In this document: in pieces, positions 5,348 to 55,733 of the stretch
Layout: every line of letters begins with the position of its first letter
Position numbering within the stretch: the first letter of the stretch is position 1
Source of the DNA: an uncultured delta proteobacterium
GTDB lineage: Bacteria; Desulfobacterota; Desulfomonilia; Desulfomonilales; Desulfomonilaceae
Direction: 5' to 3'
DNA: 64,000 nt
NCBI GenBank assembly: GCA_963843165.1
Contig: CAWJJL010000052.1
Coordinates: 1,145-65,144 of the forward strand
Program-made: the position numbers and the translations under genes
Notes under the pieces: model-generated
Told to the model about the DNA's origin: nothing
The model's input: the letters and a program-made list of their open reading frames with translations, nothing else
Databases searched by the model: none

Positions 5348-6125
5348 TCCTATTGCGTTGCGCGCCGCACAGGCAGTAAGTGCAGCCGGGTTTGCAATGC
5401 TGGTAGCCTTTCTGGCACGCCGACTGGGCATTTACTTACAACGGGAAGCAGGGATTGCGCTGGTACGCGGGATTACCCAGATCATCATCGTCGGATTATT
5501 GCTGACATTCGTTTTAGGAGCCGCTCAGTGGCTCAGTGCGGTTGTGCTTGTGGGCATGATGCTGGCCGGAGCAGTCATTGCCGCTCGCCGGACGAAGCAC
5601 ATCCCCGGTATCCTTCAGGTGACAACCCGCTCGATTCTTATGGGCGCCGGGCTGGTTATAGGAATCATGGTCATTCTGGGGGTCATCGATAGTACGCCGG
5701 CGGCCTTAATCCCGGTCGGGAGCATGCTGATCGCCAACGCGATGAACACGACCGCCCTGGCGCTGGATCGATTCCGAGCAGAGATCGAGGCCCACGCCGG
5801 GCAAGTGGAGGCTGGATTAGCACTAGGAGCGTCCCCCAGCGCAGTCGTCGCGCCCTATATGAGTGAGGCTGTACAAGCCAGCATCATTCCTAGCATCAAC
5901 AATTTGCGCTCGCTGGGGATTGTATGGATTCCTGGCGTTATGGCCGGTATGATACTGGCGGGGAGTGACCCTGTTCTTGCAGCAAGCTACCAGTTTGTAG
6001 TGGTCGCGATGCTGTTTGCTACGGCTGGAACAACCGCACTGCTCTGCACATTTTTCGTGCGCTCGCATGCCTTTTCAGGGGCTGAACAACTGATTCTCCG
6101 GATGGCGGAGAAAGAATCCAAATAG
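5325..6125 (+). CDS. Polytopic membrane permease, FetB/YbbM (UPF0014)-like partner of the preceding ATPase
   Basis: About 266 aa with multiple hydrophobic helices, overlapping the stop of the ATPase gene. The size and pairing match the FetAB arrangement. Confidence 0.5.
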   Translation: MLNQLFTDPIALRAAQAVSAAGFAMLVAFLARRLGIYLQREAGIALVRGITQIIIVGLLLTFVLGAAQWLSAVVLVGMMLAGAVIAARRTKHIPGILQVTTRSILMGAGLVIGIMVILGVIDSTPAALIPVGSMLIANAMNTTALALDRFRAEIEAHAGQVEAGLALGASPSAVVAPYMSEAVQASIIPSINNLRSLGIVWIPGVMAGMILAGSDPVLAASYQFVVVAMLFATAGTTALLCTFFVRSHAFSGAEQLILRMAEKESK

Positions 6126-6164
6126 AATATACATTGGAGCAGTAGTCGATCTACGCCATATCTA

Positions 6165-6966: not shown

Positions 6967-7726
6967 TTACACCTGTTGACCGGAGCGATTGCATCTGCAA
7001 GCCGGGTCCGGTTTAATTTCACAAATCTGAAACTGATTGCGCCAGAAGTCCATCACGAATAGGCCGGGCAGTATGTTATCCCAACTCCCCACCAGAAACC
7101 TTGATGGCTTCCGTCACCTCAATGGATGCTACTGCACTTGCAGCCGAAGAGAGGATTCCCACACTGGAAGCTCTCGGATGATTTTCCACAGCGCCCGGAT
7201 CCGGCCACAGGCACCTCAGACATGGCGTGCGTCCGGGGATTATGGTCATAACGTTGCCCGCGCATTCAACCGCGCCCCCGAAAACATAGGGAATGCCTCG
7301 ATCAATGATTGCATCATTGATAAAGTACCGTGCCTTCATATTATCCAGAGCGTCTACCACCAGATCAACCCCGTCAACTAGCTCTTCGACGTTATGCGAT
7401 CCGATTGTCGCGGCAATCGCCTCGATCTCGATTCCTGAATTCGCCGCCAACAACCGTTCTTTGGCAGCTTGCGGTTTCGAGACCCCTCGCGCGACGTCGG
7501 CCTCATCATAAAGGATCTGTCGATGGAGATTGTGCAACTCAGGTGAGTCCAGGTCCGCAATCCTCATGAACCCTACGCCGGCCCTTGCCAACAGAGTCGC
7601 GATGAGCGACCCGAGAGCCCCCAATCCGGCCACAAATACGCGAGAATTCTCAATCCGTGATTGACCCTCCTCACCGATCATTTTGAGCAGTATGTGACGA
7701 CTGTATCGAGGTATAGGAGGTTCCAT
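6967..7726 (-). CDS. ThiF/MoeB/HesA-family E1-like adenylyltransferase, frame broken near 7076-7082
   Basis: RYSRHILL, GLGALGS (nucleotide-binding) and the CLRC motif. After the apparent stop, the +1 frame continues with the family-typical tail DNILPGLFVMDF...KPDPACRC. Confidence 0.75.
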
Positions 7727-7911
7727 ATTGAATGGCTCCGTCAGGAATCGAGGGCTCACTTCGGCAAGCGAATGACCAGGGAGAGAAAAACTCTTTTGCA
7801 AAAGATTTTTCTCCCTGGAACCTCTTTCCAGCCCAGTTGCGCAAGAAGCAAGACCTGACCCCACGCAGTAGCCCCTCAGCTACGAGGGTCCCAATGCGGG
7901 GTCACCACATC

Positions 7912-8370
7912 CTACGTGAGCGGATTGGCATCTGAGGGGGCGGGTTCACTCGCAACTTGGCCCAACGGCGATGGCCCGATTTCCGCGAGCCGGTCGGTCA
8001 TGGTCTGGACGGCTGCTACGAACTTTTGGGCCATAGATGCGGACATATTGAACATCTCAAGGCGGCGTGGGTCAATGCCGGTGTCCTCGAGGAGCTGTTT
8101 GGTATATTCCACCACCTGCCTGGCTCGTAGGTTCCCTTCAACAAAGTGGCATTCGCCTTCCATACACCCAGCGACGAATACAGCATCGGCGCCGTAGCGG
8201 AATGCTTCCAATAGGAGAATCGGCTCCACCTTTCCGGTACAGAGCAGCTTCACGATCCTGACATTGTGTGGATACTGTAGCCGCATGGAACCGGCCAGAT
8301 CCGCGGCATTATACGCGCAATAAGTGCACGTGAACGCTATGATTTTCATATCTTGAGTGTCCATCGGCAT
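7912..8370 (-). CDS. mvhD: Methyl-viologen-reducing hydrogenase delta subunit (MvhD)-like protein
   Basis: IIAFTCTYCAYNAADLAG...VKLLCTGKVEP...GADAVFVAGC..GECHF is the MvhD/FlpD signature; the gene lies 10 nt downstream of the Hdr fusion gene. Confidence 0.8.
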   Translation of the reverse strand: MPMDTQDMKIIAFTCTYCAYNAADLAGSMRLQYPHNVRIVKLLCTGKVEPILLLEAFRYGADAVFVAGCMEGECHFVEGNLRARQVVEYTKQLLEDTGIDPRRLEMFNMSASMAQKFVAAVQTMTDRLAEIGPSPLGQVASEPAPSDANPLT

Positions 8371-11300: not shown

Positions 11301-12808
11301 TCCGGAAGCCCCGCATCCACTCTTTGGCCGATTGCAAGGATGACCGTGTCCGCTTCCATTCCCATGGCGCACTGATCGTCAAAGCTGGGGTTGAATCTCC
11401 CTGGGGGATCGAAAACACATGTGCATTTGTTGAAACAGACGCCTCTGACCGCAACCCCATTTTCTTGCTTCACGAATTCAAATGGACCCCAGCAGTTGTG
11501 GATGATGACCCCTTCCGCTTCGGCTTCGTGGACTTCTTCCACATGCGCGGGCATCTCGTCACGATCTTCGAGACAAACCATGTGGACTTCTTCACCGCCG
11601 AGCCGAACCGCGGTACGCGCCACGTCCACGGCAACATTGCCGCCGCCTATAACGAGAACTTTGGCGCCGAGCCGGACTTTTTCCCCCTGAGCCGCGGCTT
11701 TCAGAAAATCGACGCCCTGGAGAACTCCGGGCGTATCTTCCGCCTCGATTCCGAGCTTTGCGCCAGCGGTCAGACCTGCTGCTATGAAGACCGCCTCATA
11801 GCCTTGGTCTCGCAGATTATCCAGTGTGACGTCCTTGCCCAAAGCAGTCGAGCAACGGATTTCCACGCCACAGCGTTTGATATATTCAATGTCCCTGTCC
11901 AAGATCGCTTTGGGGAGGCGATATTCGGGAATGCCGTAACGTAAAACTCCGCCGGGCTTCTCATCCTTTTCAAAGACCGTGACCGAGTATCCCTGAAGAG
12001 CCAGCTGATAAGCGCAACTTAATCCTCCCGGTCCGGCCCCGATGACCGCTATTTTTCGATTCTTAGCTGCTGAGATTTCCGGAGTATCATCGTCGATCGC
12101 CTGCTCAGACAAGAACCATTTCACGTCATTGATCGCAATTGCTTCATCTACACGGGCTCGGGTGCATTTCTCTTCACAGAATCGCACGCAAACTCTCCCG
12201 CACACTGAGGGGAGGGCACAATCCTTACGAATAAGATTAAGGGCTTCTTTATATTTCCCTTTGCGAGCCAGGGCCAAGTATCCCTGCACGTGTATATGAG
12301 CGGGACAAGCAGCCTTGCACGGGCTCACTCCGGCCTTTTGGATTACTGCTTTATTCGGTATTGCTTGGGGATAGAGTTTGTGGATTGCCTTTCTCGGCCG
12401 GAGGCTCGCATCGAATTCGTTTGGGACTTCCACAGGGCAGACTTCGAAGCAGTCTCCACAGGCATTGCATTTCTGCATATCCACGTATCTGGGATGTTTA
12501 AGTATCCGAGCCTGGAAACGTCCCGCTTCGCCATCCACGCCCAGGATTTCGGAATTGGTCAGGATCTCGATATTCGGGTGTTTGTCGACTTCCACCAGCC
12601 TTGGTGAAATCGTGCACATCGAGCAGTCGTTGGTGGGGAAGGTCTTATCGAGTTGGGCCATTCGCCCGCCGATCGCACTCTTTTCTTCCACCAGGTAGAC
12701 TTTATATCCTGCATTTCCCAGATCGATCGCGGCCTGCATTCCCCCTATGCCTGCTCCCGCGACCAGCACCGCTCCGATTTTGTTCTTATTTTCGATTTTC
12801 TCGTTCAT
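8380..12808 (-). CDS. hdrL: Giant HdrA-like flavoprotein with inserted GltD/NfnB-like NAD(P)H module and a second HdrA unit (HdrL type); frame broken near 8866-8875
   Basis: N-terminal GAGIGGMQAAIDL plus ferredoxin Cys motifs. A GltD-like block follows with VIGAGPGGLSCAYQL and VIGGGNVAVDVA, then an HdrA core (CVGSRD...YCSSVCC) and a second unit (VIGGGIAGMTAALSL...CVGSRE..YCSRVCC). The 158-aa ORF 8380..8856 supplies the HdrA C-terminus after a 1-nt shift at a CCC run. Confidence 0.85.
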
Positions 12809-12871
12809 TGAAACGATATAACCCTCGATCAGGTTTAGACAAAACAGTTAGGAGTTCTTGAAGGGGGTCAA

Positions 12872-12899
12872 GGGGAAACTCTCTGCAAGAAGTTTCCGC
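12872..12899. repeat. Palindromic intergenic repeat, copy 1 (hairpin GGAAACT-N10-AGTTTCC with G-rich left flank)
   Basis: Seen in the 110-bp gap between hdrB-like and hdrL. It shares the GGGGGTCAAGGGGAA...TGCAAGAAG pattern with the two copies between hdrC and hdrB. Confidence 0.6.
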
Positions 12900-12918
12900 C
12901 TGAAAATTCCTTCAACTC

Positions 12919-13773
12919 TTAAGCGGCTAGGCCTTTGCTTCGGAGCAGAGGAGCAGGATCTACAAGGTGTTTTCGCCACCAGGAGCCGGTTTCCGGTATG
13001 CTCATGGCAACAGCCAAAAGTTCGGTGATATAGACTACTGGTATTTGAAAGCTAGTATTCCTCTCACTCTCGATCTCTTTTTCACGTGTGTCGAGATTCG
13101 CCTGACACATGGGACAATCTGTAACTATAATCTCACCGCCAGCCTCCTGCGCGGCTTGGAACAAATTACCGGAAAGCTTCCGGACAACTTCCTGTCGGGT
13201 CATGGCCAAGTTCCCGCCACAACAATCGGTCTTGTAACTCCAATTGACAGGGTCAGCACCGATAATTTTGAGAATTGCATCGATTTCTCTCGGGTCTTCC
13301 GGATGCGGGTGCTTCATCGCGTGAGGCGGCCGAACCGTGAGGCAACCATAATACGGGACAGTCTTGAGGCCGACCAAGGGTTCCTTGATGCTAGCCTGAA
13401 TCCTTCGCAGAATCTCTTCTTTGAGCAGCATGTCATTTATGTGAAGAACTTCGACACCGGTTATAGCTGAACTATTGGGGTGATCTTCGGGATGTTCTTT
13501 AAGATGAGCCTGACATATCTTCAGCCGGTGGAAACAGGCCGCGCAGGGAGTCAGAAGCGGTCTGTCGTAATCAGATGCTATGAGCAGATTTCTCGCAGGT
13601 AATTCAATGGAAGCTTCGGGGTTCAGTATGTGGGCGCTGCTGGCTCCGCAACAACTCCAGTCCCCGATTTCCACCAGATTTATGCCGAGGCCCCGGAAGA
13701 CAGCTAGAATACCCGCGTCGTAATCATGGGCTGTCCCATGCAACGTGCAACCTGGAAAATAGTTCACATCCAT
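12919..13773 (-). CDS. hdrB: Heterodisulfide reductase subunit B-like protein (two CCG domains)
   Basis: MDVNYFPGCTL..., WSCCG and TDCCGG/CPMC motifs. Start moved to the internal Met because the upstream 90 nt of the ORF is a palindromic repeat. Confidence 0.8.
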   Translation of the reverse strand: MDVNYFPGCTLHGTAHDYDAGILAVFRGLGINLVEIGDWSCCGASSAHILNPEASIELPARNLLIASDYDRPLLTPCAACFHRLKICQAHLKEHPEDHPNSSAITGVEVLHINDMLLKEEILRRIQASIKEPLVGLKTVPYYGCLTVRPPHAMKHPHPEDPREIDAILKIIGADPVNWSYKTDCCGGNLAMTRQEVVRKLSGNLFQAAQEAGGEIIVTDCPMCQANLDTREKEIESERNTSFQIPVVYITELLAVAMSIPETGSWWRKHLVDPAPLLRSKGLAA

Positions 13774-40291: not shown

Positions 40292-41750
40292 TTAGAAGCA
40301 CAGATTTGAAGGATTCATGATATTGTTTGGGTCAAACACCTTCTTCAGCCGTTTCAGATGATGAGCATAAGAAGCTGCCTTGTCATAGACGATCGGGGCA
40401 AGGTCACCGTAAGGCCTTGTAAATACGGCCCCTTCTTTTAGAAGCTCCATAGCGGCCACTTTGTAAAGTGAGCGAATGATTGCCTTCTCGGCTTCATCAG
40501 CGGGATCGTAAAAGAAGGTGAATTCGGGTCTGCACGCTCGATTGTGCTCAATCGGCTGGATGTACATGCCAATGTCGCTGCCGGCATAGCCGTACTCTGC
40601 AGCAATTTCTTTGATCACGGTCACAAAGTACTGCGCATTGGACGGCCGTGCGTGGAAAAATAGGCTTTGGCACGCCCCTCTGACACGGTTTTTCCAGTGT
40701 GGCACGTTGGCCGGCCACGGGTTGCGCAGTATCGGCAGGAGTTTGTTTCTTATGCCCGGGAAGCCGGGAAGAGTCTCACCCAACTTCAGATTCGAGAACT
40801 CGTCTTTCATTACCTGAGCAAGAAAGTTTTCTTCGTATGCGATTTTTTCTTCAGGACGTCTTAAAAGCCCGCTGATCACCAAAATCAGCGTCCAAGGAGG
40901 CAGACTGGCTTTCAGTTTATCAAAGTCGCTCGGCCAATCCTGGGCCAGGATCGCTGCCAGATCCACATTATTAAGGAGCAAGACCTCCTGACCGATCCTG
41001 CGCGGCAATATGCGGTGCAGAAAATCCATTGCATAATCCAGATCGTCAATTGCAGCGAACAGGATTTTATCGATTTTGGGGATCGATTCTATTTTCAAAT
41101 TCGTCCAGGTGACCACTCCCATTGTGCCTTGTGCGCACTGAAAAAATCGGTAAAAATCAAGGCCCGGGCCTGAGGGATTCCCTCCCTTTGACGCGGAATC
41201 CGGGTATCCGTTAACGCTGGCCGATCCCATTCTGAAAATCTCCCCAGTAGGCCACACCACTTCCATGGCCTCCAGGGGTTCGCCGTAATCGTACACCTGA
41301 TTAGTGGGCTCTTCCCGTTCCATGAAATCGGTAAGCACGGAACGTTCAGCAGGCGGAGTCAAGGGCATAATTACTCGAAAGCCTTTCTTTTTGAGTTCTC
41401 TGGTAAGCTTGTCCCAGGTAACTCCGGCTTCGAATCTTACCCGACGGTTGTCGGCATCGATTTCCAGGATCTTATCCATTCTCGACAAATCGAGAATCAG
41501 GCCACCCTCCTTGGGAATTGTGGCGCCGTAGAAATGGACCTTGGAACTGCATGGCACAACGGGCAGTTTGTTTTGGTTACAGAATTTGATGATTTCAGCG
41601 ATCTCCTCAGAAGTTGACGGTTTGACCACGTAACTGGGAGCCCCAGGGGGGTAATAGCTGAAATCGGTCGCGTAGGCTTGAAGCTGAGCAGGGTCCTCGG
41701 AGAAGTTTCTCAGCCCCAACAATTTTAGACAAGTTCGATTTGACGTCCAC
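40292..41750 (-). CDS. FAD-linked oxidase (GlcD-like), frame broken near 41715-41730
   Basis: The 476-aa ORF carries the FAD_binding_4 domain. A GTG start with a GGAGG RBS at 41750 gives the family-typical N-terminus VDVKSNLSKIVGAEK in another frame. Confidence 0.75.
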
Positions 41751-42119
41751 TGTTAACCTCCGTTTCTTCTAAAATTCCCGCTGAGTAAATGTTTTTAATT
41801 GAGACTGGCGCCATCTCTCGCTTACATGGATCGAAATTCGGAGATGGCTATTTTGTTTGAGTTATGAAATCAGACGTTTGCGCCTTCGTGCGTTAAGACC
41901 CTTTATTTTCATGGATAGCCCCCGAGTTGAAAAAAAGGACATTGCGCCCAGTCTGAAGCGGCCTATTGATGAAACTGTTAGCACCTTAGTTACTTACGCT
42001 TTGATAGTTAACACGTTAAGCAGTTTCGGTATCAAAATAGAGGACCCGCGAGATTATGTCAAGTTTTTTCCTAGCACTCTCGTAATCGTTCAGTTACGAG
42101 CGGCAATTTGCCGTTTCGT

Positions 42120-42195
42120 GTCATTGCGAGGAGTGAAACGACGAAGCAATCTCAGTTTTCAAAGGCAGAGATTGCTTCGCTACGCTCGCAATGAC
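42120..42195. repeat. 76-bp imperfect palindromic element of the widespread GTCATTGCGAG...CTCGCAATGAC type
   Basis: The outer arms GTCATTGCGAG/CTCGCAATGAC and inner arms GAAGCAATCTC/GAGATTGCTTC pair. The spurious ORF across it reads ...RLLRYARNDN.... Confidence 0.7.
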
Positions 42196-42423
42196 AATCT
42201 TTCGCCACTAGTGACTGAGCAGATACGCACTCTCTCATTGATTCCCCGAGAAACCATATTTTTTGAATCAATCCCGAAAGAACCGCATCTGTGTCTGTTG
42301 ATAGCGGCTGCTTGACTGCGCACATTTCGTGAAGGGGGTCCATTAGAGTTGACCACTCCCAGAATTTAACAATTGTTGACACATTACATCGGGAATACAA
42401 GAAAGTGGGATCCGAGGTGTCAT

Positions 42424-43194
42424 ATGAAAATCACAAGAAATAAAGTCTTTTCGAATATAGCGATAGCCATGGGCGTGGTAGCCGTATTCTTGATGGGAAC
42501 AAACCCCGTCAGCGCGGACCCCGAGTCCGGCTGGTGGAATGCTCCGGGCGACGACCCCGCAAGAGAGGGGCAATTTTTCCAGCCCCCTGGTTGGGAGGGG
42601 GGATCGAAAACCACTGACAGCCGAACTGGAGCTGTCCATACCTATCAATATAGGACCGATTCCAATACCGGCGATCGTATAGAGGTGGATCGGGATTACA
42701 CCATCAATAAGAACAAGGATATGACCGACTTCAGATCTTTACAAACCACAACTCGCAAGGATAAATCGACTAGCCAAGAAGCCTTCGACGAGAAAGGAAA
42801 CCCTTCCAATGAAGTGGACAAGGATCGCAATGGCCGAGTCACATCTACCAAGACCTACTACAAGGATGGCAGCGGCTACGAGCAACACAATAATTATCCA
42901 GGAACCAATAAAACTTCTTCCGTCACTATGGTTCACAGCGGCGTCACGACGACCACAAATTACGGCACGGACGGTCAGGAAACCTCCTCGTCGTCTTTTG
43001 ACGCCAATACCAACACCAAAGTGAGTAGAGGGTACGTTAACGGAAAAATGACCGACGAGATTATGACACTAAAAGATGGCAGCACTCTACGCCGTGGTTA
43101 TGGGGCCAATGGCAATTTAGGGACGGTTGAGACGGATGACCCAAACACGGGAATAACAACCAACACGATCTATAGAGCCGACGGTTCCACGTGA
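42424..43194 (+). CDS. Secreted Thr/Asn/Asp/Gly-rich repeat protein (first unit of the cassette array)
   Basis: Signal peptide (MKITRNKVFSNIAIAMGVVAVFLMGTNPVSA), then loosely periodic 11-12-aa units (EAFDEKGNPSN, TKTYYKDGSGYE, TTTNYGTDGQETS, IMTLKDGSTLR, NTIYRADGST). Confidence 0.5.
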   Translation: MKITRNKVFSNIAIAMGVVAVFLMGTNPVSADPESGWWNAPGDDPAREGQFFQPPGWEGGSKTTDSRTGAVHTYQYRTDSNTGDRIEVDRDYTINKNKDMTDFRSLQTTTRKDKSTSQEAFDEKGNPSNEVDKDRNGRVTSTKTYYKDGSGYEQHNNYPGTNKTSSVTMVHSGVTTTTNYGTDGQETSSSSFDANTNTKVSRGYVNGKMTDEIMTLKDGSTLRRGYGANGNLGTVETDDPNTGITTNTIYRADGST

Positions 43195-43613
43195 ACATCA
43201 CAACCGCAAAGTCGGTCCGGATGGCAACTCTATCGCCCTCTCCAGGAACGGATACCAAGGATGGCGCAAGCCATACGGTTAACTACGCGCCTCGTTGCCA
43301 CGTGCCGGGGCTCCCCAGAACTCGCAAACTCGCTTTCCCCCGGTCCGGGAAGTGCAGGCGGCTCACAAACCAAAAAGACGTTCGATCCATGATCGAAACG
43401 GCAAGCTCATCGAGTGCGGCGAATACCGGAGTGACAAATAATTACCAGAGACACAACACAACAACATACAATCCGAATACCGGATTCATGACATCAAAGT
43501 CTGAAACTCAGGCGGACGGTGTACATACGATTAATTATACGGGTAATTGCAGTCATTCGGCGGCTCTGACTGTCACAAGACCTCCGAGTTCCCACCGATC
43601 CAAAGACGAATAA
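43191..43613 (+). CDS. Probable continuation of the preceding repeat protein in shifted frames (ends ...INYTGNCSHSAALTV...)
   Basis: The composition and the NY(T/S)G(N/S)CS motif recur at 47.49 kb in the third unit. The reading frame changes at 43194 and probably again inside. Confidence 0.3.
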   Translation: MNITTAKSVRMATLSPSPGTDTKDGASHTVNYAPRCHVPGLPRTRKLAFPRSGKCRRLTNQKDVRSMIETASSSSAANTGVTNNYQRHNTTTYNPNTGFMTSKSETQADGVHTINYTGNCSHSAALTVTRPPSSHRSKDE

Positions 43614-44016
43614 AATAACCGCAGCCAAGTCCTGTGACAACCAGGGCAACTGCAGAGAATGTCGACCCGAAGAATATTCAAGTTTGGGCGGGCGGGCCCA
43701 GTATTTCCGGTATCCCGACTAGCACAGAATCCAAGCGACCACGAGCTTGGAGACAAGCCACAGGGCCTCACGGAAAATGCCAGAGAAGAATGTCAAATCC
43801 GACGTCCTGAAACAGGTCGGGGACAAGTCAAGCGGACACGCCGCAGACGGCAGAAACAAGGTGAAGGAAGGTATTCGCCACAGGTGAGATTACGCCCGGG
43901 AGCAAGATTCCGTCTGCCGTGCCGCCAACCAATACCCCGTCCCACAGCCCGGCGCCTCCAAGGTAACTCGTGATGCCGACAGCATAGCCAAAGATCGCCA
44001 GGAACAAATTAAACGA

Positions 44017-44370
44017 TTGGGGCTGGACAAGGTCAAGAATGGCCAGGCAGTGCAGAAGCCGGAGGGTCTCACTGGGGCCAAGGGGCAGGCGAACGCTGAG
44101 CTTCTGAAACAAATCGGGGACAAGTCGAGCGGACACGCGGCAGACGCCAAAGAGAAGATGAAGGAAGGTTTTACCAAAGGCGAGTTTAGTCCCGGCAGCA
44201 AGATCAAGGAAAAGGTCATTCCCTTGAGCCAATCCTCCAGTCGGGCTTTAAGGGGCAAACAAGCATCAGCCTCAAATGCATTCAATGGATCAGGTGAAGA
44301 CCAAATCAAAGCCTCAAAATTGGAGTTCCTCAGCAGGAACCCAGGGAGCAGTCAAACATCATCCAAATGA
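44017..44370 (+). CDS. Lys-rich tail ORF of cassette unit 1 (ends ...KASKLEFLSRNPGSSQTSSK)
   Basis: Contains AELLKQIGDKSSGHAADAKEKMKEGF, duplicated at 43.80 kb. Its C-terminal peptide and stop position are conserved in front of all three ankyrin genes. Confidence 0.4.
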   Translation: MGLDKVKNGQAVQKPEGLTGAKGQANAELLKQIGDKSSGHAADAKEKMKEGFTKGEFSPGSKIKEKVIPLSQSSSRALRGKQASASNAFNGSGEDQIKASKLEFLSRNPGSSQTSSK

Positions 44371-44846
44371 GAAGCCCCGATCTAATTGATAGGAGAAGGA
44401 CAATGAATAAGATCATGACATTCCTGGCTGTGGCGCTTTTGGCGATTCCTACATACTCGTTTGCGGCTGAAAGCCAAAACCTGGAGTCGATACTTCTGGA
44501 AGCGGCATCGGCAGGAAATACGGATATGGTCAAATCGTTTCTTGATAATGGCGCAAATATTGAAATCGAGAACGATGTTGGAGCAACGCCTTTAATTTTT
44601 GCCTCAGCCAAGGGTCAAAAGGAGGTTGTCGCCTTACTCCTCGAGCGAGAGGAGCGAACGTCAACGCCAAAACAAGCAGCGGGATAACTCCTCTTATGGC
44701 TGCGGCATCCGGAGGTTATGCGGAGATAGTTAAGCTGCTGCTGGCCAAGGGAGCGGATGTTTCCGCCAAGGACCAGCAGGGCCGCACTGCTTTTAGTATG
44801 GCGGAAGCCGCAGGCGAATCGCAGGTGGCTGATTTACTCAGGTCGG
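44303..44846 (+). repeat. Cassette repeat copy 1 (junction plus ankyrin 5' part)
   Basis: Aligns base for base with 46180-46720. In the first ~240 nt of the ankyrin ORF I count about 29 differences by hand. Confidence 0.8.
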
Positions 44847-45034
44847 AACAGCTCCTAAGGAACAGACACGCGTCGCATCACAGAGCCGAAGCTATGCCCC
44901 GCCGGTCCTTCCGATTCACGGTCTCGCAGAGGGCGAACCGAGCAGCCCAACGCCTGATTTACGCAAGGGCAGTGACGGATCTGCCGCGGGTCAACCTGGC
45001 GGACTCCTGGACAATCCTTTTATCGGCCAGATGA
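44403..45034 (+). pseudogene. Secreted ankyrin-repeat protein, copy 1; frame broken near 44650 and again after ~44845
   Basis: Signal peptide MNKIMTFLAVALLAIPTYSFA and ANK repeats (GNTDMVKSFLDNGANIE, GATPLIFASAKGQKEVVALLLE; then ITPLMAAASGGYAEIVKLLLAKGADV in ORF 44696..). An extra GA relative to copy 2 is present at about 44650. Confidence 0.7.
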
Positions 45035-45095
45035 TGAGTCGAATATTTGGCTGTTCAGGCCTCGCCTCAGGGCAGTCCTGACATGCAGATGAACG

Positions 45096-46041
45096 TTGCG
45101 AAACTTCACCTCCGGCCAAGCCGCTCAAAATCAGTTTCCCGCCCCGGGCGCCAATGCTCAGGGCAACGCCCCGGCAGGTAACGCTCAACCGGCCCCAGCT
45201 GCACAGGCAACGACTACCGTGACAAAAAACCCTGACAATTCGACGACTACCGTGACGAAAAACCGTGACAATACGTCGACTGCAGTGACCAAGGACGAAA
45301 ACGGCAAGAAAGTATCGAGTGCGACTTTGAATGACAAGGGGATAAAAACAAGTGAAACACACTTCAAAAACGGCAAGAAAACATTGACTGCGACTTTTGA
45401 TGACAAGGGACAGAAAAAAAGTACGACATCATTTGACGAAAACGGCAAAAAGAGCGACTTGGACTTTTGATGACAAGGGGAAAGTGACAAGTCAAACGGA
45501 CTTCGAGGAGGGCAAGAAAGTATCGACTGAGACTTGGGATGCGGGAAAGAAAGCAAGTTTCACAAGCTTTAACAAGGACGGCAAAAAAGCACAATCTGAT
45601 ACTTATGATGATAAGGGCCATGTAACAAGTTCCACAGACTTTGGCCCGGACGGCAAGAAAACATCATCTGCGATTTATGATGATAAGGGCCATATAACAA
45701 GTATCACACGTTTTGGCCCTGATGGCCGGTTGCCGAAATCTGTTGATACCGTTGATGTTAACACGAACGCAATAACAAAAACCGTGCAATGCGACACGCC
45801 GGGCAAGTGCCGTATCCAGACGACGCTGCATAACCTCGCAGGAAATAACCATGATGGCGTTAGTGCAAACAAGTTGCAGGGCTTTGCCGGTCAGAAGGTC
45901 CAAACCGGGCCCAAGGAGCAGGTCAAGGCCGACATCCTGAATCAGATACAGGAAACAAATCCGGCTCCAATATCAAGACAGGAGCACTGGATGCCAAGAA
46001 GCACTCCGACGACAAATTTCAGAGCGGCGTCAACAGTCTGA
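45096..46041 (+). CDS. Repeat protein of cassette unit 2: about 15 tandem 11-12-aa units (consensus S/T-x-T-F/Y/W-D-D/E-K/N-G-K-K-x-S), frame broken at an A5 run near 45455
   Basis: The units read TATFDDKGQKKS, TTSFDENGKKS, TWTFDDKGKVTS, QTDFEEGKKVS, SDTYDDKGHVTS, STDFGPDGKKTS, SAIYDDKGHITS, ITRFGPDGRL. The pattern resembles half-units of YD/Rhs or MORN-like beta-hairpin repeats. Confidence 0.5.
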
Positions 46042-46179
46042 AACAGGATTTCAACAAACAGGCGATTACACGGTAACACTTTCAAAGAGAAAGTCATTCC
46101 ACAAACCCAGTCTTCCAATCAGTTTTCGGAAGGGATGAAGCATAAAACTCATAATATGCAGGCGGAAAAATATAAGGCA

Positions 46180-46720
46180 AAATCAAAGTCTCAAAATTGG
46201 AGTTCCTCAGCAGGATCCCAGGGAGCAGCCAAACATCATCTGAATGAGAAGCCCCGATCGAATTGATAGGAGAAGACCATGAATAAGATCATCACATTCC
46301 TGGCTGTAGCGCTTTTAGCGATTCCTACATACTTGTTTGCGGCTGAAAGCCAAAACCTGGAGTCAATACTTTTGGAAGCGGCATCGGCGGGAAATACGGA
46401 TATGGTGCGGTCGTTTCTTGAGAACGGCGCAAACATTGAAATCAAGAACGACGTTGGAGCGACTCCCCTCATATTCGCTTCCGCCAAAGGGCAAAAAGAG
46501 GTTGTCGCCTTACTCCTGGACAAAGGAGCGAATGTCAACGCTAAAACAAGCACTGGCATAACCCCTCTAATGGCTGCGGCGGCCGGAGGATATCCGGAGA
46601 TAGTTAAGCTCCTGCTTGCGAAGGGAGCGGATGTTTCCGCCAAGGACCAGCAGGGCCGCACTGCTTTTAGTATGGCGGAAGCCGCAGGCGAATCGCAGGT
46701 AACTGATTTACTCAAGTCGG
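46180..46720 (+). repeat. Cassette repeat copy 2
   Basis: See copy 1. The spacing from copy 1 to copy 2 is 1877 bp. Confidence 0.8.
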
Positions 46721-47073
46721 CCCAAAAAAGTTCGGCTCCGGAACAACCGCGCGTGGCATCACAAAGTAGAAGCTATACCCCGCAAAGGTCCGCCGGGCCT
46801 TCCGATTCCAGTCCCGCTGATAGCGGACCAAGCAGCCCAACGCCTGACTTTAGCCAGGGAAGTGACGGATCCGCAGCCGGCCAACCTGGTGGGCTCCTGA
46901 ACAATCCTATAGTTGGGCAGATACTGAATCAGGTACTGGGTGGTCAGCAATCGGGTCCCGGAAACGTACGGCCCAGCGCCATCCTCCAGAACCGCTCAAT
47001 CCTGCACGCTCCGAACCAGCCTCCCGCCCAGGCGGGGAACGGTCCGCGACCAGGGCCCTGCTCCAGCAGGTAA
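46279..47073 (+). CDS. Secreted ankyrin-repeat protein, copy 2 (intact; 3 ANK repeats plus Pro/Ser/Gly/Gln-rich tail)
   Basis: 264-aa uninterrupted ORF with RBS GGAGAAG, signal peptide MNKIITFLAVALLAIPTYLFA, and ANK consensus blocks (TPLIFASAKGQKEVVALLLDKGANVNAK, TPLMAAAAGGYPEIVKLLLAKGADVSAKD). Confidence 0.8.
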   Translation: MNKIITFLAVALLAIPTYLFAAESQNLESILLEAASAGNTDMVRSFLENGANIEIKNDVGATPLIFASAKGQKEVVALLLDKGANVNAKTSTGITPLMAAAAGGYPEIVKLLLAKGADVSAKDQQGRTAFSMAEAAGESQVTDLLKSAQKSSAPEQPRVASQSRSYTPQRSAGPSDSSPADSGPSSPTPDFSQGSDGSAAGQPGGLLNNPIVGQILNQVLGGQQSGPGNVRPSAILQNRSILHAPNQPPAQAGNGPRPGPCSSR

Positions 47074-48235
47074 TGGCCAGAACAAGGGGGACCGCCAAGG
47101 TGGCTAACCATCCTAACCTCGTGACCACCCCTTTGACCGCGGCAGGGCGGATTTGAAGGGGACGAAAACATTTAATCGGACCACGCAAGACCCTTAGATC
47201 TGCGCGACAGCAAAGGATCCCAATACAGGATCTGTTACGAAAATGGACACAATTACGGATCAGAACGGCAAAGTTACGCAATGCAAAGACCACGCTCATA
47301 AACCCTATTCCGGAGGGAGGGCAACGGATTGAACAAAAAGCCTACTTTTGCAAATGGCAAGACTAGGCGGAGTGACACTGTCGTGAGCGCGAAGGGACAG
47401 CTCCCACCACAGTAATTTAGGAAAACAATAACATTACCTCCATCAGGCACGTGTATCCGAGCGGCGATACCGATACTGCCAATTATAGCGGCAGTTGCTC
47501 AAAGGTAAGTGATCCTGCGGTCCCTTACGGCTGGTGTAGTGGATACCGATCGCAAGACGAATAAGATGACCACAACTAACTATGACAATGACGGCAAAGC
47601 TATCGGCCCGCCGCAAGGTTCTACATCCCCGCGAACATGAAAACACAAGCGGCAACGCTCAAGGCAAAGCAAAACCAGAAAAACCTCGCCGGAGCGAAAC
47701 AGCAAAACTGGTGGGGAAGAATATGCAGGGAAACGGACTGGCAAACAAGCTCCACGGCCAACAGCAAAACCTGGCAGGAAACACAGCAGGGTCTTACTAG
47801 CAACAAACAGCAGATACAGGCAGATGTCCTGAATCAGATACGGAACAAAGCGGGCTCCAAAGTCAAGACGGGGCATGGAGGCAGAAGACGGGAAGCAGTG
47901 CAATTAACCCGAGTCACGGCGTCCAGCGCCGACGCGGCAAATTTACCGGAGAGCAAGCAGCACATAACACAAGTTTCAGTACGGCGAGAACAAGAATCTG
48001 AAATGCGTTTTAAAAAGACGAGATTACCCACGGGAAAGTTTCAAAGAAGAGAGTGATTCCGAAAACCCAATCTTCCAATCAATTTCGAAGGGAATAAGTA
48101 TAAAACTCATAACATGAGGCGGAAAAATTCAAAGCAAAATCAAAGTCTCAAAATTGGAATTCCTCAGCAGGATCGCAAGGAACAGTCAAACACGATCTCC
48201 ATAAGAAGCCCCGATAGAATTGATAGGAGAAGAAC
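47074..48235 (+). other. Cassette unit 3 repeat/Lys-rich region, coding-like in several frames (degenerate as sequenced)
   Basis: Fragments homologous to units 1 and 2 lie in different frames: DPNTGSVTKMDTITDQNGKV, TANYSGSCSK, TNYDNDGKAIG, ADVLNQIRNKAGSKVKTG, and the conserved tail SKLEFLSRIARNSQT. Confidence 0.35.
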
Positions 48236-48660
48236 ATGAAAAAATTGTAACATTCCTCACGATAGCGCTTTTCACGATTCCAACATATCTGTTTGCGGCT
48301 CAAAGCCAAAACCTGGAATCGGTGCTCTTGGAAGCGGCATCTAACGGACAAACTGATATGGTAAAGGCATTTCTTGACAAAGGCGCAAATATTGAAGTCA
48401 AGAACGATGCTGGAGCGACGCCATTAATTTTTGCCTCGGTGAAGGGCCATCCGGACGTGGTCAAATTGCTCCTGGAGCGGGGCGCCAACGTTAACGCCAG
48501 GACAAATACCGGGAATCACGCCGCTTATAGCCGGGGCATCCGCCGGTAATGAGGCAATTGTACAACTTCTGCTGGAAAAGGGCGCGGATTTGTCCGCCAA
48601 GGACCAGCAGGGCCGCACAGCGCTGGATATAGCTGAAGCCACAGGAGATACGCAGGTGTT
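48137..48660 (+). repeat. Cassette repeat copy 3 (more diverged)
   Basis: Same junction sequence AAATCAAAGTCTCAAAATTGGA.TTCCTCAGCAGGA and the same ankyrin 5' part. The spacing from copy 2 to copy 3 is 1957 bp. Confidence 0.7.
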
Positions 48661-49545
48661 GCTCTCCTCAAATTACGCGAAGGAACTTCCGGCATGGCTT
48701 CGGCCCCGAATGCGCCTCCCGGTCAGATGCTCAACTTGGAGCATGGGTTAAGCCCATGCCCCAATCCGGGAAAGTTAACGATACGTCTTCGGCGCAGGTT
48801 CCAATCGCTCAACCGCCTGTAGCTCAGCCTACGGTAAATCAAGCTCCAGTGGCTCAACCTGGGCGACGCAAGCTCCGATGGCCCAGGTGCACACCGAAAG
48901 CATTCGTGAAGCGGATAATCCTTCGGGTCTGACGGTTCGTTCCGAACCTTCGCCGCAGGGACGAGTCATGGCATATCTGCCGGTTGGCTCAAGGTGAGTT
49001 ACTCAGGAGAGCCAAACAACGGCTGGGTCAAATTATCCGGACCCATTGCGGAAGGCTGGATCGCCGCGAGATATGTGGGATCGGGCGACGGCGAGGCGTC
49101 GGTCATCAAGATCGATAGCCCCGATCAGTGTCTGCGAGTAAGAAAAGGCCCCGGCGGCAATTATGACAAGATCGGGTGTCTGCCGATGGGCGCAAAGGTA
49201 AAAGTCGCGGGTCCGGCGCAAAACAGCTGGGCTAAAATAGTCTCGCCGATGGAAGGTTGGGTGAGCGCCGGACAAATTCAGGGGCCTGGCGTCTTTCCTG
49301 CGAAACCGGCTACTTCGGGTGTGCAAAAGGCTCGGCCGGCGACGTCACAGAGCGCAGGTTACAGAAGAGAGCGATCTGACAGCGACTCCGACTTCGACAG
49401 GACCAGTAGACAGATTGATAGAGAAATGAGCGACATGAGAGCCCAAACTCAAAGCAGCCCGATTGGTCCGCAGGTCTTACCGGGTAGTGGCGGGTTTGGG
49501 ATCGGACCTTTCGGGATCGGCCCAGGAGGCATAGGTTTCAGATAA
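48236..49545 (+). pseudogene. Ankyrin copy 3 fused to a Pro/Gln-rich linker and two bacterial SH3 domains; several frame breaks as sequenced
   Basis: ATG 48236 is followed by an A6 run that shifts the frame. The ANK blocks are GQTDMVKAFLDKGANIE, TPLIFASVKGHPDVVKLLLERGANVNA and ITPLIAGASAGNEAIVQLLLEKGADLSAKD. The SH3b units are LTVRSEPSPQGRVMAYLPVGS...GWVKLSGPIAEGWIAARYV and CLRVRKGPGGNYDKIGCLPMGAKVKV...WAKIVSPMEGWVSAGQI. Confidence 0.6.
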
Positions 49546-50183: not shown

Positions 50184-50660
50184 ATGTTAAGAAATCAAAA
50201 CGACAACATTGTATCTGATACGGCTTACAAGAGCGACATGAGCGTCGACGAGAGAGTCATGATGGCAATCGTGCGCGTTGCCGAGCGCTTCAAGAAAAAC
50301 TCTTCTGCCATATTCAAGAAATGGGGCCTTACGTTCTCTCAATATAATGTGCTCAGGGTCCTGGATGCCTCCGAAAACGGCCAGAATACAATGAAGAACG
50401 TGAACAGAATCATGTTGGTTTCCAGCGCCAACATGACAGGTATTGCCAAACGACTGGAAAAAAACGGGTTTATCATCAGGACTAGCGATCCTTACGATGA
50501 TCGTGCCAAAAGACTGCAGATCACACCTGAAGGGACGAAGGTGCTAAAGGCTATCTCAGATCATAAAGAGCGAAATTTGAGAAAGTACTTGATGAAACTC
50601 TCCGACGAACAAAAGGCGGCTGTCCTGGAAACCCTGCAAAAGATCCTTATGAAGACTTAA
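50184..50660 (+). CDS. MarR-family transcriptional regulator
   Basis: 158 aa with a winged-helix core (LTFSQYNVLRVL...MKNVNRIMLVSSANMTGIAKRLEKNGFI.R...DDRAKRLQIT.EG). Confidence 0.85.
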   Translation: MLRNQNDNIVSDTAYKSDMSVDERVMMAIVRVAERFKKNSSAIFKKWGLTFSQYNVLRVLDASENGQNTMKNVNRIMLVSSANMTGIAKRLEKNGFIIRTSDPYDDRAKRLQITPEGTKVLKAISDHKERNLRKYLMKLSDEQKAAVLETLQKILMKT

Positions 50661-51066: not shown

Positions 51067-51903
51067 ATGGCAACCTCAATAGATGGCACCAAACCCAAAT
51101 CCACTTATTCCGGCATTGTGCCTGCCGTGGAAGAGGCGTCTCGAGTCCTGATAACTCTCGCCCGTAACAATGCGGGAAAGATGACTCTGACCCAGATCCG
51201 CAAGGAAGTCGGTATCCATAACAGCAAGGCGTTCTCTATCTTGAACACGCTGCAGAAGTTTGGATTCGTTCAGAAAGATCCCGTAACCAAAACATATTCA
51301 TTGGGAATGGGGCTGATCTTCCTATCACAAAAGGTCCTTGACACCCTGGATTTGCGTGAAGTTGCGTCTCCGTTTCTCAGCAGACTCTCATCAGGAACAA
51401 ACAGCACGGCGTTTCTAGGATTGATCTCGGGCAATTACGTTTATGTAGTGGCCAAAGATGAGGGAAGCCAAACGGTGGCCGTTACATTCAGGATTGGACA
51501 GCGATTTCCCCTGTTCTGGGGCACTCACGGCAAGGCTATACTGGCATTTTTGCCGGAAGAAGAGCGCAAGCAAATTTTGGCGAGCGATGGTCTCTCTTTT
51601 CGTAGTCAGGGAGCACCGATCGATTTACGTGATCTGGAGAAAGAACTTATTGCGTGCAGAAAGTCCGGTTACGCAGTTGATCTCGATGAAACAAAGATAG
51701 GAATTCGTTCCGTGGCCGCCCCGGTTTTCGGCCCCACGGCAAAACTGATCGGGGCGTTCGTTGTTATTGGCACATTTCCCGGTGAGTTGGCGGACGATTA
51801 CGGGAGGCGCGTGGCTAAAGAGGCACGGGTCTTCTCGCAGTCGCTGGAGGGTTACCCCAATCCAACAGCGCGAACTGAGCGTGGAACAGTATTGATCAAT
51901 TAA
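51067..51903 (+). CDS. IclR-family transcriptional regulator
   Basis: The N-terminal wHTH region is LTQIRKEVGIHNSKAFSILNTLQKFGFV. The C-terminal effector domain includes GYAVDLDE...GIRSVAAPVF. Confidence 0.85.
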   Translation: MATSIDGTKPKSTYSGIVPAVEEASRVLITLARNNAGKMTLTQIRKEVGIHNSKAFSILNTLQKFGFVQKDPVTKTYSLGMGLIFLSQKVLDTLDLREVASPFLSRLSSGTNSTAFLGLISGNYVYVVAKDEGSQTVAVTFRIGQRFPLFWGTHGKAILAFLPEEERKQILASDGLSFRSQGAPIDLRDLEKELIACRKSGYAVDLDETKIGIRSVAAPVFGPTAKLIGAFVVIGTFPGELADDYGRRVAKEARVFSQSLEGYPNPTARTERGTVLIN

Positions 51904-53362: not shown

Positions 53363-55733
53363 ATGAAAGAGTTCAGCGTTATCGGCAAAGATATTCCAAG
53401 GAGCGACGCCACGCCAAAGGCAAGGGGGTCAGCCATATACACGGATGATATGAAGCTCCCTCGAATGCTACACGGACGAATATTGATGAGCCCATTCCCA
53501 CATGCGCTCATCAAACACATCGACACGAGCAAGGCCGCGTCACTCCCTGGCGTCAAGTGCGTCATCACTGCGGAAGATACCCCCAAGATCAAATACGGTA
53601 ACTGGAGGCTTTTTCCCGAAACCCAGGACGAGTATCCCTTGGCCGTTGATAAAGTCCGATTCATAGGGGACGAGGTGGCTGCAGTGGCCGCCACAGACAA
53701 AGACACGGCAGAAGAAGCTCTGGAGCTGATCGAGGTGGAATACGAAGAACTCCCGGCAGTCTTTGATGTTGATGAGGCCATGCGGCCTGGGGCGCCGATC
53801 ATACACGATTACTGCCCCGACAATGTCAGTGTCAATCGGAAGATCGAGTACGGCGATGTGGAAAAGGGTTTTGCGGAGTCAGACTATGTCAGGGAAGACA
53901 CCTTCGACCTTCCTCCGGTGATCCATGCTTATCTTGAGCCCTGCTCGGCCCTGGCCCAAGTGGACTTGGACGGTCGCATCACTCTGTGGACTTCCACCCA
54001 GGTGCCGTATATCGTCCAGTGCCTCCTGGCCTCAACGCTCGGCATGAGGGAAAACGATGTTCGAGTGATCAAGCCTTTTATAGGTGGCGGTTTCGGCGGG
54101 AAAATGGAATTGCGGACATGGGAATTCTGTGCCGCACTCATGGCGAAGAAGACCGGGCGGCCTGTAAAGTTCACACTCAGCAGGGAAGAGGAATTTTTGG
54201 TCGGCAGGAGAAGACATCCCATGAGGATTCATCTCCAAGGTGGGATTCAAGAAAGACGGGACCCTGGTCGCCAACGACGTGAGAATTCAATTGGACGGCG
54301 GGGCATACAATGCAATGGGACCCACAGCCACGTTTTTGTGCGGCAGCTTCGGGGCCATGCTCTACCGCTATCCCAGCTATCGATTTCATGGGCAACACGT
54401 GTATACCAACAAGCCTCCTGCCAGCGCAATGCGTGGTTTCGGCGCTCCTCAGGCCTTTTACGCCAAAGAGACTCAGATGAATATCGCGGCGGAGGAACTG
54501 GGGATCGATCCGATTGATCTCAGAATAAAGAACGCCCAAATGAGCGGGGACGAAATTCCTGGTGTGGCAAATGTTACCAGCTGCGGCTACATTGAAACGC
54601 TCAAGAAGGTGGCTGAGATGAGCGGGTGGAAGGAAAAACGCAAAAACTTGAAACCGGGCCAGGGGATTGGCATCGGCTGCTATAGTTTTATATCCGGAGG
54701 AGTGTTCAACTGGTTCAACACCGAATATCCCTTCTCTGCGGCAGAAATTAGAGCATTCTCAGATGGTACCGTGCATCTTCTTACCATGGCCGCGGATATC
54801 GGGCAGGGCTCGGATACTGTGCTCAAACAGATCCTGGCAGAAGACCTGGGGCTCCGAATGGAGGACATCCGAATCACCTCTGCGGATACGGCCATGACTC
54901 CCCCGGCAGATTTGGGCGCATGGGGAAGTCGGCTCACCTTGATGGCAGGAAACGCGGTGCTCGACGCGTCAAGCAAGATCAAAAAGCGGCTATTTCGTGC
55001 GGTATCCGCTCGCTTTAATCTCAACGTCATACATCAGCTCGAATGCAAGAACGGAAGGGTGCAGTCCAAGGCCAAGCCCGAGTACGGTATGAGCTTCGCA
55101 CAGGCAGTCGCCGGGGAGCAAAGGGCAAGCGGTGGGGAACCACTTGTCGCCCGCGGCTCATACACGCCGAGAGACAAGGGAATGGTGACTCCTGCTCTTG
55201 GTTTCGGCGCTCAGGTGGCTGAGGTGGAGGTCGATCGAGAGACCGGCCTGGTGAAAGTCAAGCATATGTGGACGGTCCATGACTGCGGGACCGTGATAAA
55301 CCCGAGAGGCGTTGAGGGACAGGCTAACGGATCTATTCAAATGGGACTAGGGTACACACTATCAGAACAATTGATCATGGATGGCGGCAAAACCCTCAAT
55401 ACCAATTTCGTGGACTACAAAATGCCGATGGCCACCGACATGCCGTTGAGCGAACAGGGCCACGTTGAGACCTATGAGCCGGAAGGGCCGCTAGGGGCCA
55501 AAGAAGCCGGAGAAGGGCTTGCATCACCCACCGCTCCTGCCATTTCCGACGCCGTATGGCACGCAACAGGTTATCGGTGCAAAGAATTGCCCATAACTCC
55601 CGAGAAAGTGCTCCGATACCTCGAGGAAACACCAACATCCGAGCAGGAAAGCGACGAACCATCGCGGCGTTTGCAGGAAGTGGCAACGGTTGCGCAAGGC
55701 CTGTTCAAGCGGGCGTTATCGCTAATTATGTGA
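53363..55733 (+). CDS. Xanthine dehydrogenase/CODH-family molybdopterin-binding large subunit, frame broken near 54233-54243
   Basis: N-terminal a/b-hammerhead (GKDIPRSDATPKARGSAIYTDD), GGGFGGK and MRGFGAPQ motifs, and C-terminal GAKEAGEG. The two ORFs join at ...MRIHL-K-VGFKKDGT. Confidence 0.85.

Follow-up and report, generated by a model that had tools for sequence, protein, structure and literature searches.

A stretch of 64,000 nucleotides (the window) was analysed in contig CAWJJL010000052.1 of assembly GCA_963843165.1, derived from an uncultured delta proteobacterium. Positions 42424-49545 of the window are occupied by one co-oriented cluster of four genes, arranged in the order A1, Ank::A', Ank::A', Ank-SH3b, whose products are modular proteins, predicted from their signal peptides to be exported by the Sec pathway. 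Here A denotes proteins made of beta-hairpin modules and a Lys-rich tail, Ank::A' an ankyrin head fused to such a body, and Ank-SH3b an ankyrin head joined to SH3b domains. The ankyrin-containing genes are also referred to as U1 (Ank1::A'), U2 (Ank2::A') and U3 (Ank3-SH3b); related loci are designated by L numbers and homologous proteins by P numbers. The features of the locus are the following.

42424-44389, plus strand: gene A1, defined by frameshift-aware alignment to residues 1-614 of P0122, with start and stop verified.
44403-46266, plus strand: gene Ank1::A', with signal peptide, four ankyrin repeats, linker, beta-hairpin module 2 and Lys-rich tail.
46279-48217, plus strand: gene Ank2::A', aligned to the L001 fusion with 381 of 595 residues identical.
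48236-49545, plus strand: gene Ank3-SH3b, with 280 of 393 residues identical to P0009 and the start context checked.
44303-44338, plus strand: junction motif, copy 1, encoding KSKPQNWSSSAG of the A1 C-terminus.
46180-46215, plus strand: junction motif, copy 2, encoding KSKSQNWSSSAG.
48137-48172, plus strand: junction motif, copy 3, encoding KSKSQNWNSSAG.
41723-42423, plus strand: upstream intergenic region, presumed promoter site, between the divergent FAD-oxidase gene and the A1 start.

The repeated organization of the region had been recognized in an earlier, sequence-only reading, which reported a junction recurring at 44303, 46180 and 48137, with spacings of 1877 and 1957 bp. Both statements hold. 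A 36-nt junction pattern matches exactly these three sites with no mismatch and none in 100 dinucleotide-preserving shuffles; three families of direct repeats (D1-D3, 127-246 nt, 63-91% identity) are spaced by 1876/1877 and 1956/1957 bp, and the units are collinear in a four-way DNA alignment. The frame originally assigned to the junction (KLEFLSR...SQTSS) proved to be wrong. In the true frame, every copy encodes the conserved C-terminal end of the gene product upstream of it, KSKSQNW(N/S)SSAGSQG..KPRSN followed by the stop codon, an ending also found in L003, L005, L006, L010 and P0122-P0125. The spacers between each stop and the next ATG are 9-18 nt long and all contain AGGAG; each unit has its own ribosome-binding site, start codon and signal peptide. 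The natural unit is the gene, either A or Ank::A', which replaces the unit proposed earlier, an ankyrin gene plus a stretch of about 1.1 kb.

Comparison with related loci provided the intact counterparts of these genes. In L001, an A protein of 814 amino acids (aa) with signal peptide is accompanied by a 424-aa open reading frame (ORF), leading from ankyrin through a P/Q-rich linker into a beta-hairpin module, and by a second ankyrin (244 aa), directly continued in a different frame over 426 aa; the array closes with a secreted protein of 287 aa and an Ank-SH3b of 391 aa. L005, located on a 2.6-Mb contig, encodes an A of 424 aa, a fusion ORF of 692 aa, a secreted protein of 353 aa and an Ank-SH3b of 396 aa. 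The 692-aa ORF starts inside the first ankyrin repeat, spans linker, repeats and tail, and is one frame break away from its own signal-peptide start (5720..6139). L010, a Logan short-read assembly of run SRR26671185, contains Ank-SH3b, an A of 741 aa, an intact Ank::A' of 580 aa, beginning 18 nt past the A stop, and a secreted protein of 255 aa. The A1 homologues P0122-P0125 are also intact, at 574-741 aa. Since ankyrin and repeat region form single ORFs in L005 (692 aa), in L010 (580 aa) and in P0004 (a 424-aa ORF leading from Ank into the repeat module), the read-through of the ankyrin tail into the next repeat region, previously only suspected, is confirmed. Similarly, the array is not an assembly duplication, the outcome that had been named as a possible refutation, because it is also present in five other assemblies (L001, L002, L005, L006, L010). 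The pairing of A-type proteins with signal-peptide ankyrin proteins is conserved.

The family is very rare. Close relatives of the intact ankyrin ORF (46279-47073) were found in only a handful of metagenome contigs, and a scan of Joint Genome Institute (JGI) metagenome contigs yielded a single additional locus. Its members are restricted to a small clade of uncultured 'delta proteobacterium' metagenome-assembled genomes (MAGs), mostly from Microflora Danica (MFD) samples of soil and sediment.

In the window, the longest open frame of the 7-kb array does not exceed 273 aa, and the flanking genes are intact. Frameshift-aware protein-to-DNA alignment called 40 frame breaks, reduced to about 35 by a correction in U1, where the count over 45050-45920 had been inflated by a reference of the wrong module and re-alignment to P0124 left 3 breaks. 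The breaks are distributed as follows.

A1: about 8 frame breaks, 3 in-frame stops.
U1 (Ank1::A'): about 9 frame breaks after the reference correction, among them +2 nt within the Ank domain near 44646-44649; no in-frame stops.
U2 (Ank2::A'): about 16 frame breaks, 3 in-frame stops.
U3 (Ank3-SH3b): 5-6 frame breaks, among them -1 nt immediately past the ATG; no in-frame stops.

These breaks are probably consensus errors, arising in the assembly of strain-mixed long-read metagenomic data over a locus which is heterogeneous in the population. Related MAGs are Nanopore-only assemblies of very complex soils and sediments, produced with Flye and Medaka (PMC12313526). Alternatively, the window array could consist of truly decaying pseudogenes, belonging to a family which is functional in L005 and L010 and inactivated here by real mutations. 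The distribution of the breaks speaks for decay, as some 35-40 one-base breaks fall within the 7-kb array and a single one in the other 57 kb or so of the window, and so does their nature. A homopolymer cause was rejected, the mean longest run being 2.78 at the breaks vs 2.71 in the background and homopolymer density being no higher than in the flanks; a methylation-motif cause was rejected as well, no k-mer being enriched around the breaks after multiple testing. In addition, the close relatives L002 and L006 are broken too, and parts of the array appear weakly constrained (see below).

The comparison with these relatives also supplied the main arguments against decay, since the breaks are almost all private to a lineage. 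Between the window and its syntenic relative L002 (91% identity over 14.6 kb) there are 110 indels, 93 of them inside the array, and L002 has a frame-restoring length at 21 of the 40 window breaks. L006 is broken differently, with about 34 breaks of its own, none of them accompanied by an in-frame stop in the fusion and Ank-SH3b genes; across 19 breaks it keeps 72% identity to L001 at the aa level. The divergence between the window and L002 is listed below as percentages of differing sites at codon positions 1/2/3.

Flanking genes: 3.1 / 1.5 / 19.2
Ank1: 6.2 / 2.8 / 22.1
Ank2: 3.9 / 1.9 / 24.7
Ank3: 3.7 / 2.3 / 17.9
SH3b part: 2.9 / 2.4 / 8.3
A1: 10.9 / 11.7 / 16.1
U2 A' part: 7.3 / 6.5 / 14.2

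Ank and SH3b codons, broken copies included, are under purifying selection: they diverge mainly at third positions, as do the intact Ank2 and the flanks. U3 carries 6 indels, with neither an excess of substitutions at positions 1 and 2 nor a nonsense codon, for an indel to substitution ratio of about 1 or higher, whereas real bacterial pseudogenes gather several substitutions per indel. Many private indels with almost no missense or nonsense decay, observed in three independent assemblies, are unlike old pseudogenes, and three parallel decays of this kind would be unparsimonious. Decay of the window array, which would have to be very recent, is accordingly considered the less likely reading.

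Frame interruptions were also noticed outside the arrays. In the window, the only demonstrable one lies in the large subunit of a molybdenum hydroxylase of the xanthine-dehydrogenase type, divided into ORFs 53363-54517 and 54240-55733 (384 and 497 aa) with the MoCoBD_1 domain split between them; the L006 orthologue is one ORF of 793 aa. Among the relatives, flanking genes are split in ENA assemblies (Oxidored_FMN, 143 and 226 aa; PIN_4/PhoH, 269 and 242 aa, vs 511 aa in L003), as is a FAD_binding_4/FAD-oxidase_C gene in L002. Such split genes in the L001, L002 and L003 assemblies indicate that frame errors are genome-wide there, unlike in the window.

All three ankyrin copies, previously recognized by eye, match the Pfam Ank model. 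The score is 86.8 bits over 46279-47070 (cutoff 21.1), with 80.9 bits for Ank_2, and the broken copies are detected too, including the fragments 48205-48546 and 48443-48748. Ank2::A' is intact through signal peptide, Ank domain and linker to about 47040, within a 264-aa ORF (46279-47073). For this protein AlphaFold2 (AF2) predicts a four-repeat ankyrin domain, made of four helix pairs with a predicted local distance difference test score (pLDDT) above 90 at residues ~30-150, followed by a disordered linker where only a weak helix is seen, over the conserved GGLLNNPIVGQILNQ motif. The ankyrin domains are mildly acidic (isoelectric point, pI, ~5). The putative Sec signal peptides (MNKIITFLAVALLAIPTYLFA/AE and MKITRNKVF...NPVSA/DP, the slash marking the predicted cleavage) correspond to an N-terminal helix in the AF2 models. 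In Ank1::A', a disordered P/Q/S linker containing GGLLDNPFIGQ leads to module 2 (VQCDTPGKC) and to a tail ending with KSKSQNWSSSAGSQGAAKHHLNEKPRSN before the stop; in Ank2::A', the body is a module-1-type beta-hairpin region (NYSGSCS), and the Lys-rich tail ends with NWNSSAGSQGTVKHDLHKKPR.

The terminal protein, Ank3-SH3b, comprises signal peptide, four ankyrin repeats, linker, two SH3b domains, a charged segment and a Gly/Pro-rich C-terminus, closing with GPFGIGPGGIGFR. The SH3_3 model scores 44 bits in 48919-49542 (cutoff 27), and the orthologue P0009 contains two SH3_3 stretches (62.2 bits), in agreement with the two SH3b domains originally assigned to the last unit; the first of them is interrupted in the window by the frame break near 48989. 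SH3b domains are present only in the last gene of the array. The terminal protein also shows a weak match to TIGR04211 (34.9 bits, below the cutoff of 65), the SH3_and_anchor family of YgiM-like proteins, which it resembles in carrying SH3b domains (PF08239); it has no membrane anchor. No named family was found to combine an N-terminal ankyrin with SH3b. Searches against PADLOC and NCBIfam gave only generic ankyrin matches, far below the cutoffs (ankyrin segments of PDC-M72A, the Ankyrin model, MzaA), and none of the PADLOC anti-phage systems is matched over its full length.

A1 begins with MKITRNKVFSNIAIAMGVVAVFLMGTNPVSA, which reads as a typical Sec signal, and contains no ankyrin, as had been proposed for the leading unit. 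It includes a beta-hairpin module 1, similar to Rhs/YD repeats, with the Cys motifs NYTGNCS...CDNQGNC, and a Lys-rich tail with two DVLKQ(V/I)GDKSSGHAAD repeats, ending in QNWSSSAGTQGAVKHHPNEKPRSN. The Cys motifs (NYTGNCS, NYSGSCS, VQCDTPGKC) and the D(V/I)L(K/N)Q(I/V) tail motif reported by the sequence-only reading were thus all found; the pairing of the cysteines (NYTGNCS...C...C...C; V.C..P..C) would fit an oxidising, exported location. The modules of the A proteins are successions of beta-hairpins, rich in T/D/G/K, with a period of about 12 aa (24 aa per double unit). Across the family, the N-terminal modules are variable, while module 2 and the extreme C-terminus are conserved, the latter most of all. 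AF2 prediction of the A protein P0125 gave a signal-peptide helix, a module of ~19 strands (about residues 64-268, pLDDT 70-90), a disordered linker, a second module of ~9 strands (344-429) and a tail of about 170 residues at pLDDT ~28. Tails of this length (~170 aa) are polycationic, with a net charge of +16 to +20, pI ~10.2 and 13-15% Lys, and carry the amphipathic motif DVLNQI in repeated form.

The Pfam models RHS_repeat and DUF2963 match marginally in 45388-46038; for RHS_repeat the scores are 24.2 bits in a fragment of the window, against a cutoff of 22, and 19 bits in P0124. When 1.84 billion representative proteins were searched with an A-family profile, only about 16-20 true relatives were retrieved, followed by a long list of proteins of 1000-5500 aa, identified by Pfam as Rhs-repeat proteins, with E values from 1e-23 to 1e-8; an Rhs core in PDB was matched at E 0.002. 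With the predicted A structure, Foldseek reported OspA (engineered and native), the CPAP G-box, Rhs core, teneurin and the TcB/TcC walls, all at low template modelling (TM) scores. No Pfam, NCBIfam or PADLOC model covers either A or a small secreted protein encoded at some of the loci, and no enzyme, toxin, defence, mobile-element or curated-family domain was found by these collections in the array proteins. The description of the array as a lineage-specific exported family, matching no enzyme, mobile element or known system, is therefore retained. The beta-hairpin repeats are not entirely unfamiliar, since the profile reaches Rhs-repeat proteins and the predicted fold matches single-layer beta-sheets. 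The array appears as a set of known module types in a new combination, forming a rare, lineage-specific family.

The best structural matches of the predicted A modules, OspA of Borrelia and the G-box of CPAP/TCP10 (E 2.6e-8 to 1e-4), share with them an extended antiparallel hairpin ribbon without a hydrophobic core. TM-scores are 0.2-0.5 and there is no sequence relationship; the likeness concerns the shape of the module, not its role, OspA being a spirochaete lipoprotein and the G-box part of a eukaryotic centriole protein. The Rhs/YD-repeat proteins (PF05593), which include the Rhs cores of type VI secretion systems (T6SS), TcB/TcC and the teneurin YD shell, are also built of consecutive beta-hairpins, and the family profile, the PDB match and Foldseek all point to them.

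This similarity invites the view that the array is an effector-immunity locus. A would be an Rhs-like exported effector, damaging envelopes by its polycationic tail, the signal-peptide ankyrins would act as periplasmic immunity proteins, and the downstream units would be orphan effector-immunity cassettes. Several features agree with it: an ankyrin gene lies directly 3' of each A-type C-terminus, the tandem partial cassettes look like orphan modules, the tails are strongly cationic with repeated amphipathic DVLNQI, and a periplasmic ankyrin protein with a self-protection role is documented. The latter, Bd3460 of Bdellovibrio, has a signal peptide and binds DD-endopeptidases (PMC4686830). The array ankyrins resemble Bd3460 in carrying a signal peptide and in being encoded beside an exported partner; unlike in that case, no enzyme domain is present in the partner, to which the ankyrin is in many cases joined in a single protein.

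The composition of the A proteins argues in the opposite direction. Neither Pfam nor NCBIfam detected in A a Rhs core, an autoprotease or a toxin domain, and the aspartyl-protease motif, the toxin tip and the VgrG/PAAR or DUF6531 partners of Rhs proteins are also missing. The two modules, of about 200 and 100 aa, cannot close a cocoon, which in Rhs proteins takes from several hundred to over 1000 aa. Polymorphic toxin loci combine a conserved body with variable tips, whereas here the polarity is reversed: the N-terminal modules vary, and the C-terminus, occupied in Rhs toxins by the toxin, is a conserved disordered Lys-rich tail. The downstream units differ from orphan tip/immunity pairs in being entire genes, each with a signal peptide; the fusion of ankyrin in cis to A' in intact relatives would be odd for an immunity protein, and no genes for T6SS or for type V, I or VII secretion systems (T5SS, T1SS, T7SS) are linked to the array in any of the locus contexts examined. 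Taken together, an effector-immunity function seems improbable.

A tree of the ankyrin heads separates a terminal clade, linked to SH3b, from a fusion clade, with about 72% nucleotide identity between them. Since the two clades separated before any of the sampled relatives diverged, the architecture is old, and the earlier description of the array as recently amplified is only partly correct, as it applies to the copy number alone, which changes recently. L003 has a single ankyrin copy; L005, L006 and L010 have two each, and the window, L001 and L002 have three. L003 contains a single Ank-SH3b gene (10001-11215), in which a head of the fusion clade is placed on an SH3b body. Such a head denotes an array collapsed by recombination between ankyrin heads, which rules out L003 as an ancestral two-gene form. 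L006, whose flanks are 98-99% identical to those of the window, nevertheless differs from it in the A gene, has one fusion fewer and carries a small secreted gene that the window lacks. Modules are shuffled as well: U1 of the window contains module 2 and U2 a module-1-type body, both L001 fusions contain module 1, and the L005 fusion two module-2-like blocks. Since copy number and module content vary among close relatives, and recombinants exist, expansion and collapse are driven by unequal crossing-over and gene conversion, which operate between ankyrin heads and conserved tails and thereby remodel the array.

Tandem arrays of surface or exported paralogues are similarly organized head-to-tail, with conserved junctions, variable copy number and recombinant or collapsed forms. 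The locus could also be a recombinational variation system, in which one expressed gene, coding for an exposed surface protein, is diversified by gene conversion from partial or silent cassettes; segment exchange would then account both for the heterogeneity of the population and for the apparent frame breaks. The sharp differences between arrays within nearly identical flanks, the recombinant Ank heads, the shuffling of type 1 and 2 modules between units and genomes, and the conserved junction and Ank head, which could anchor recombination, are all compatible with this idea. Unlike in those arrays, the genes are complete, translationally spaced and of new composition: no unit resembles a silent cassette, each being equipped with a ribosome-binding site, a start codon and a signal peptide, and L005 and L010 carry the units as complete ORFs. 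Machinery for phase or antigenic variation is not linked to the array, and no invertase, recombinase or reverse transcriptase gene was noted among the called genes of the related loci; surface exposure is an assumption of the idea itself. Such a variation system is regarded as unlikely.

AT skew rises to 0.2-0.38 over 43-48 kb (A over T on the coding strand), compared to ~0-0.1 elsewhere in the window, because the encoded proteins are rich in Lys, Thr, Asn, Gln and Asp. The A-rich strand had suggested a diversity-generating retroelement; this idea was set aside, as the units differ by indels and no reverse transcriptase gene was noted near the array.

The array is an operon-like cluster of exported, non-enzymatic modular proteins, the function of which we infer only. 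The proteins may form a non-enzymatic scaffold or adhesin in the cell envelope. SH3b domains typically bind peptidoglycan, and the SH3b pair could tether the terminal protein to it; the ankyrin domains would serve as protein-docking modules, with the conserved tail peptide, or the (V/L)LNQI motif carried by their partners, as the most obvious ligand. The beta-sheet modules would act as rigid spacers, and the polycationic tails might bind anionic polymers of the envelope or matrix. A four-gene cluster, interrupted by consensus errors and encoding an envelope scaffold or adhesin, is as a whole the best explanation for the locus, with a rough probability of 0.6.

Several observations weigh against this explanation. 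With one break in about 57 kb, the general error rate does not account for the array, and a cause specific to the locus must be assumed; the window is moreover likened to the MFD MAGs by inference, the assembly data being those of related MAGs. In A1 and in the U2 A' part the contrast between codon positions is weak and a few apparent in-frame stops occur, which fits relaxed constraint as well as fast evolution. As to function, docking of the linker motif LLNNPIVGQILNQ on the ankyrin groove was not seen in the AF2 prediction of Ank2 with its linker, which left the linker disordered. The order A-then-Ank is not universal, L010 beginning with Ank-SH3b; the small secreted protein, present at other loci, is missing from the window, L002 and L003; and no outer-membrane export system is linked to the locus.

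More specifically, the scaffold could be a chain, the ankyrin of each protein binding KSKSxNWNSSAGSQG..KPRSN, the conserved C-terminal peptide of its neighbour encoded just upstream. In this way A1, the Ank::A' extenders and the Ank-SH3b anchor would be joined head-to-tail into a self-assembling envelope tether, rooted in peptidoglycan, with length and module content tuned by unequal crossing-over. The presence of one tail per ankyrin suggests such a chain, although the duplication unit alone yields the same bookkeeping, and the different gene order in L010 speaks against it. The chain is a speculative proposal, with a low chance of being correct; if true, it would constitute a new kind of modular bacterial envelope polymer.

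More generally, if the genes are functional, the array represents an undescribed architecture, composed of an exported ankyrin head, Rhs-like single-layer beta-sheets and a polycationic disordered tail, which pairs with an ankyrin-SH3b protein in a poorly known lineage of soil and sediment and undergoes quick recombinational remodelling. It could show how eukaryote-like repeats are used by diderm bacteria to construct an envelope or matrix without enzymatic activity. The locus also carries a warning, in that hypervariable tandem loci in long-read metagenome bins can gain dense non-homopolymer frame errors, mimicking pseudogenes.

Upstream of A1, a promoter scan found weak sigma-70-like matches only, and a terminator scan was uninformative; Rfam gave no match over 41-51 kb. 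The window array is flanked by FAD-oxidase/CCG genes, the FAD-oxidase gene being located at 40292-41722 on the minus strand, and by MarR. The flanks of L001 and L003 are PIN-PhoH and flavodoxin/PAS kinase, that of L010 is LpxB; as the context differs between loci, the cassette is self-contained.

The small secreted protein, a fourth conserved member of the locus, is a signal-peptide protein of 255-353 aa, rich in G/P/N/K, with the motif GYGGNNGNGVVPPGPDRVPGSTPPP and a C-terminal Cys pair. Its gene has the following positions.

L001, 14634-15497: small secreted-protein gene, no match to Pfam, NCBIfam or PADLOC families.
L005, 8195-9256: small secreted-protein gene, likewise unmatched.
L010, 6686-7453: small secreted-protein gene, likewise unmatched.

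In L006 this gene contains, at 7672-8017, a run of 345 nt made of A only and translated as poly-Lys, which looks like an assembly or masking artefact. L006 also shows, at 12098-13158, two adjoining ORFs (153 and 228 aa), transposase-like by eye, between MarR and IclR; in the window MarR (50184-50660) and IclR (51067-51903) are neighbours and these ORFs are absent. Finally, in the more distant JGI contig L011, a gene on the minus strand (714-2051) encodes an ankyrin protein of 445 aa, in which inspection by eye revealed no obvious signal peptide; it is divergent from an Ank-SH3b gene, and a downstream gene call of 684 aa runs off the contig.

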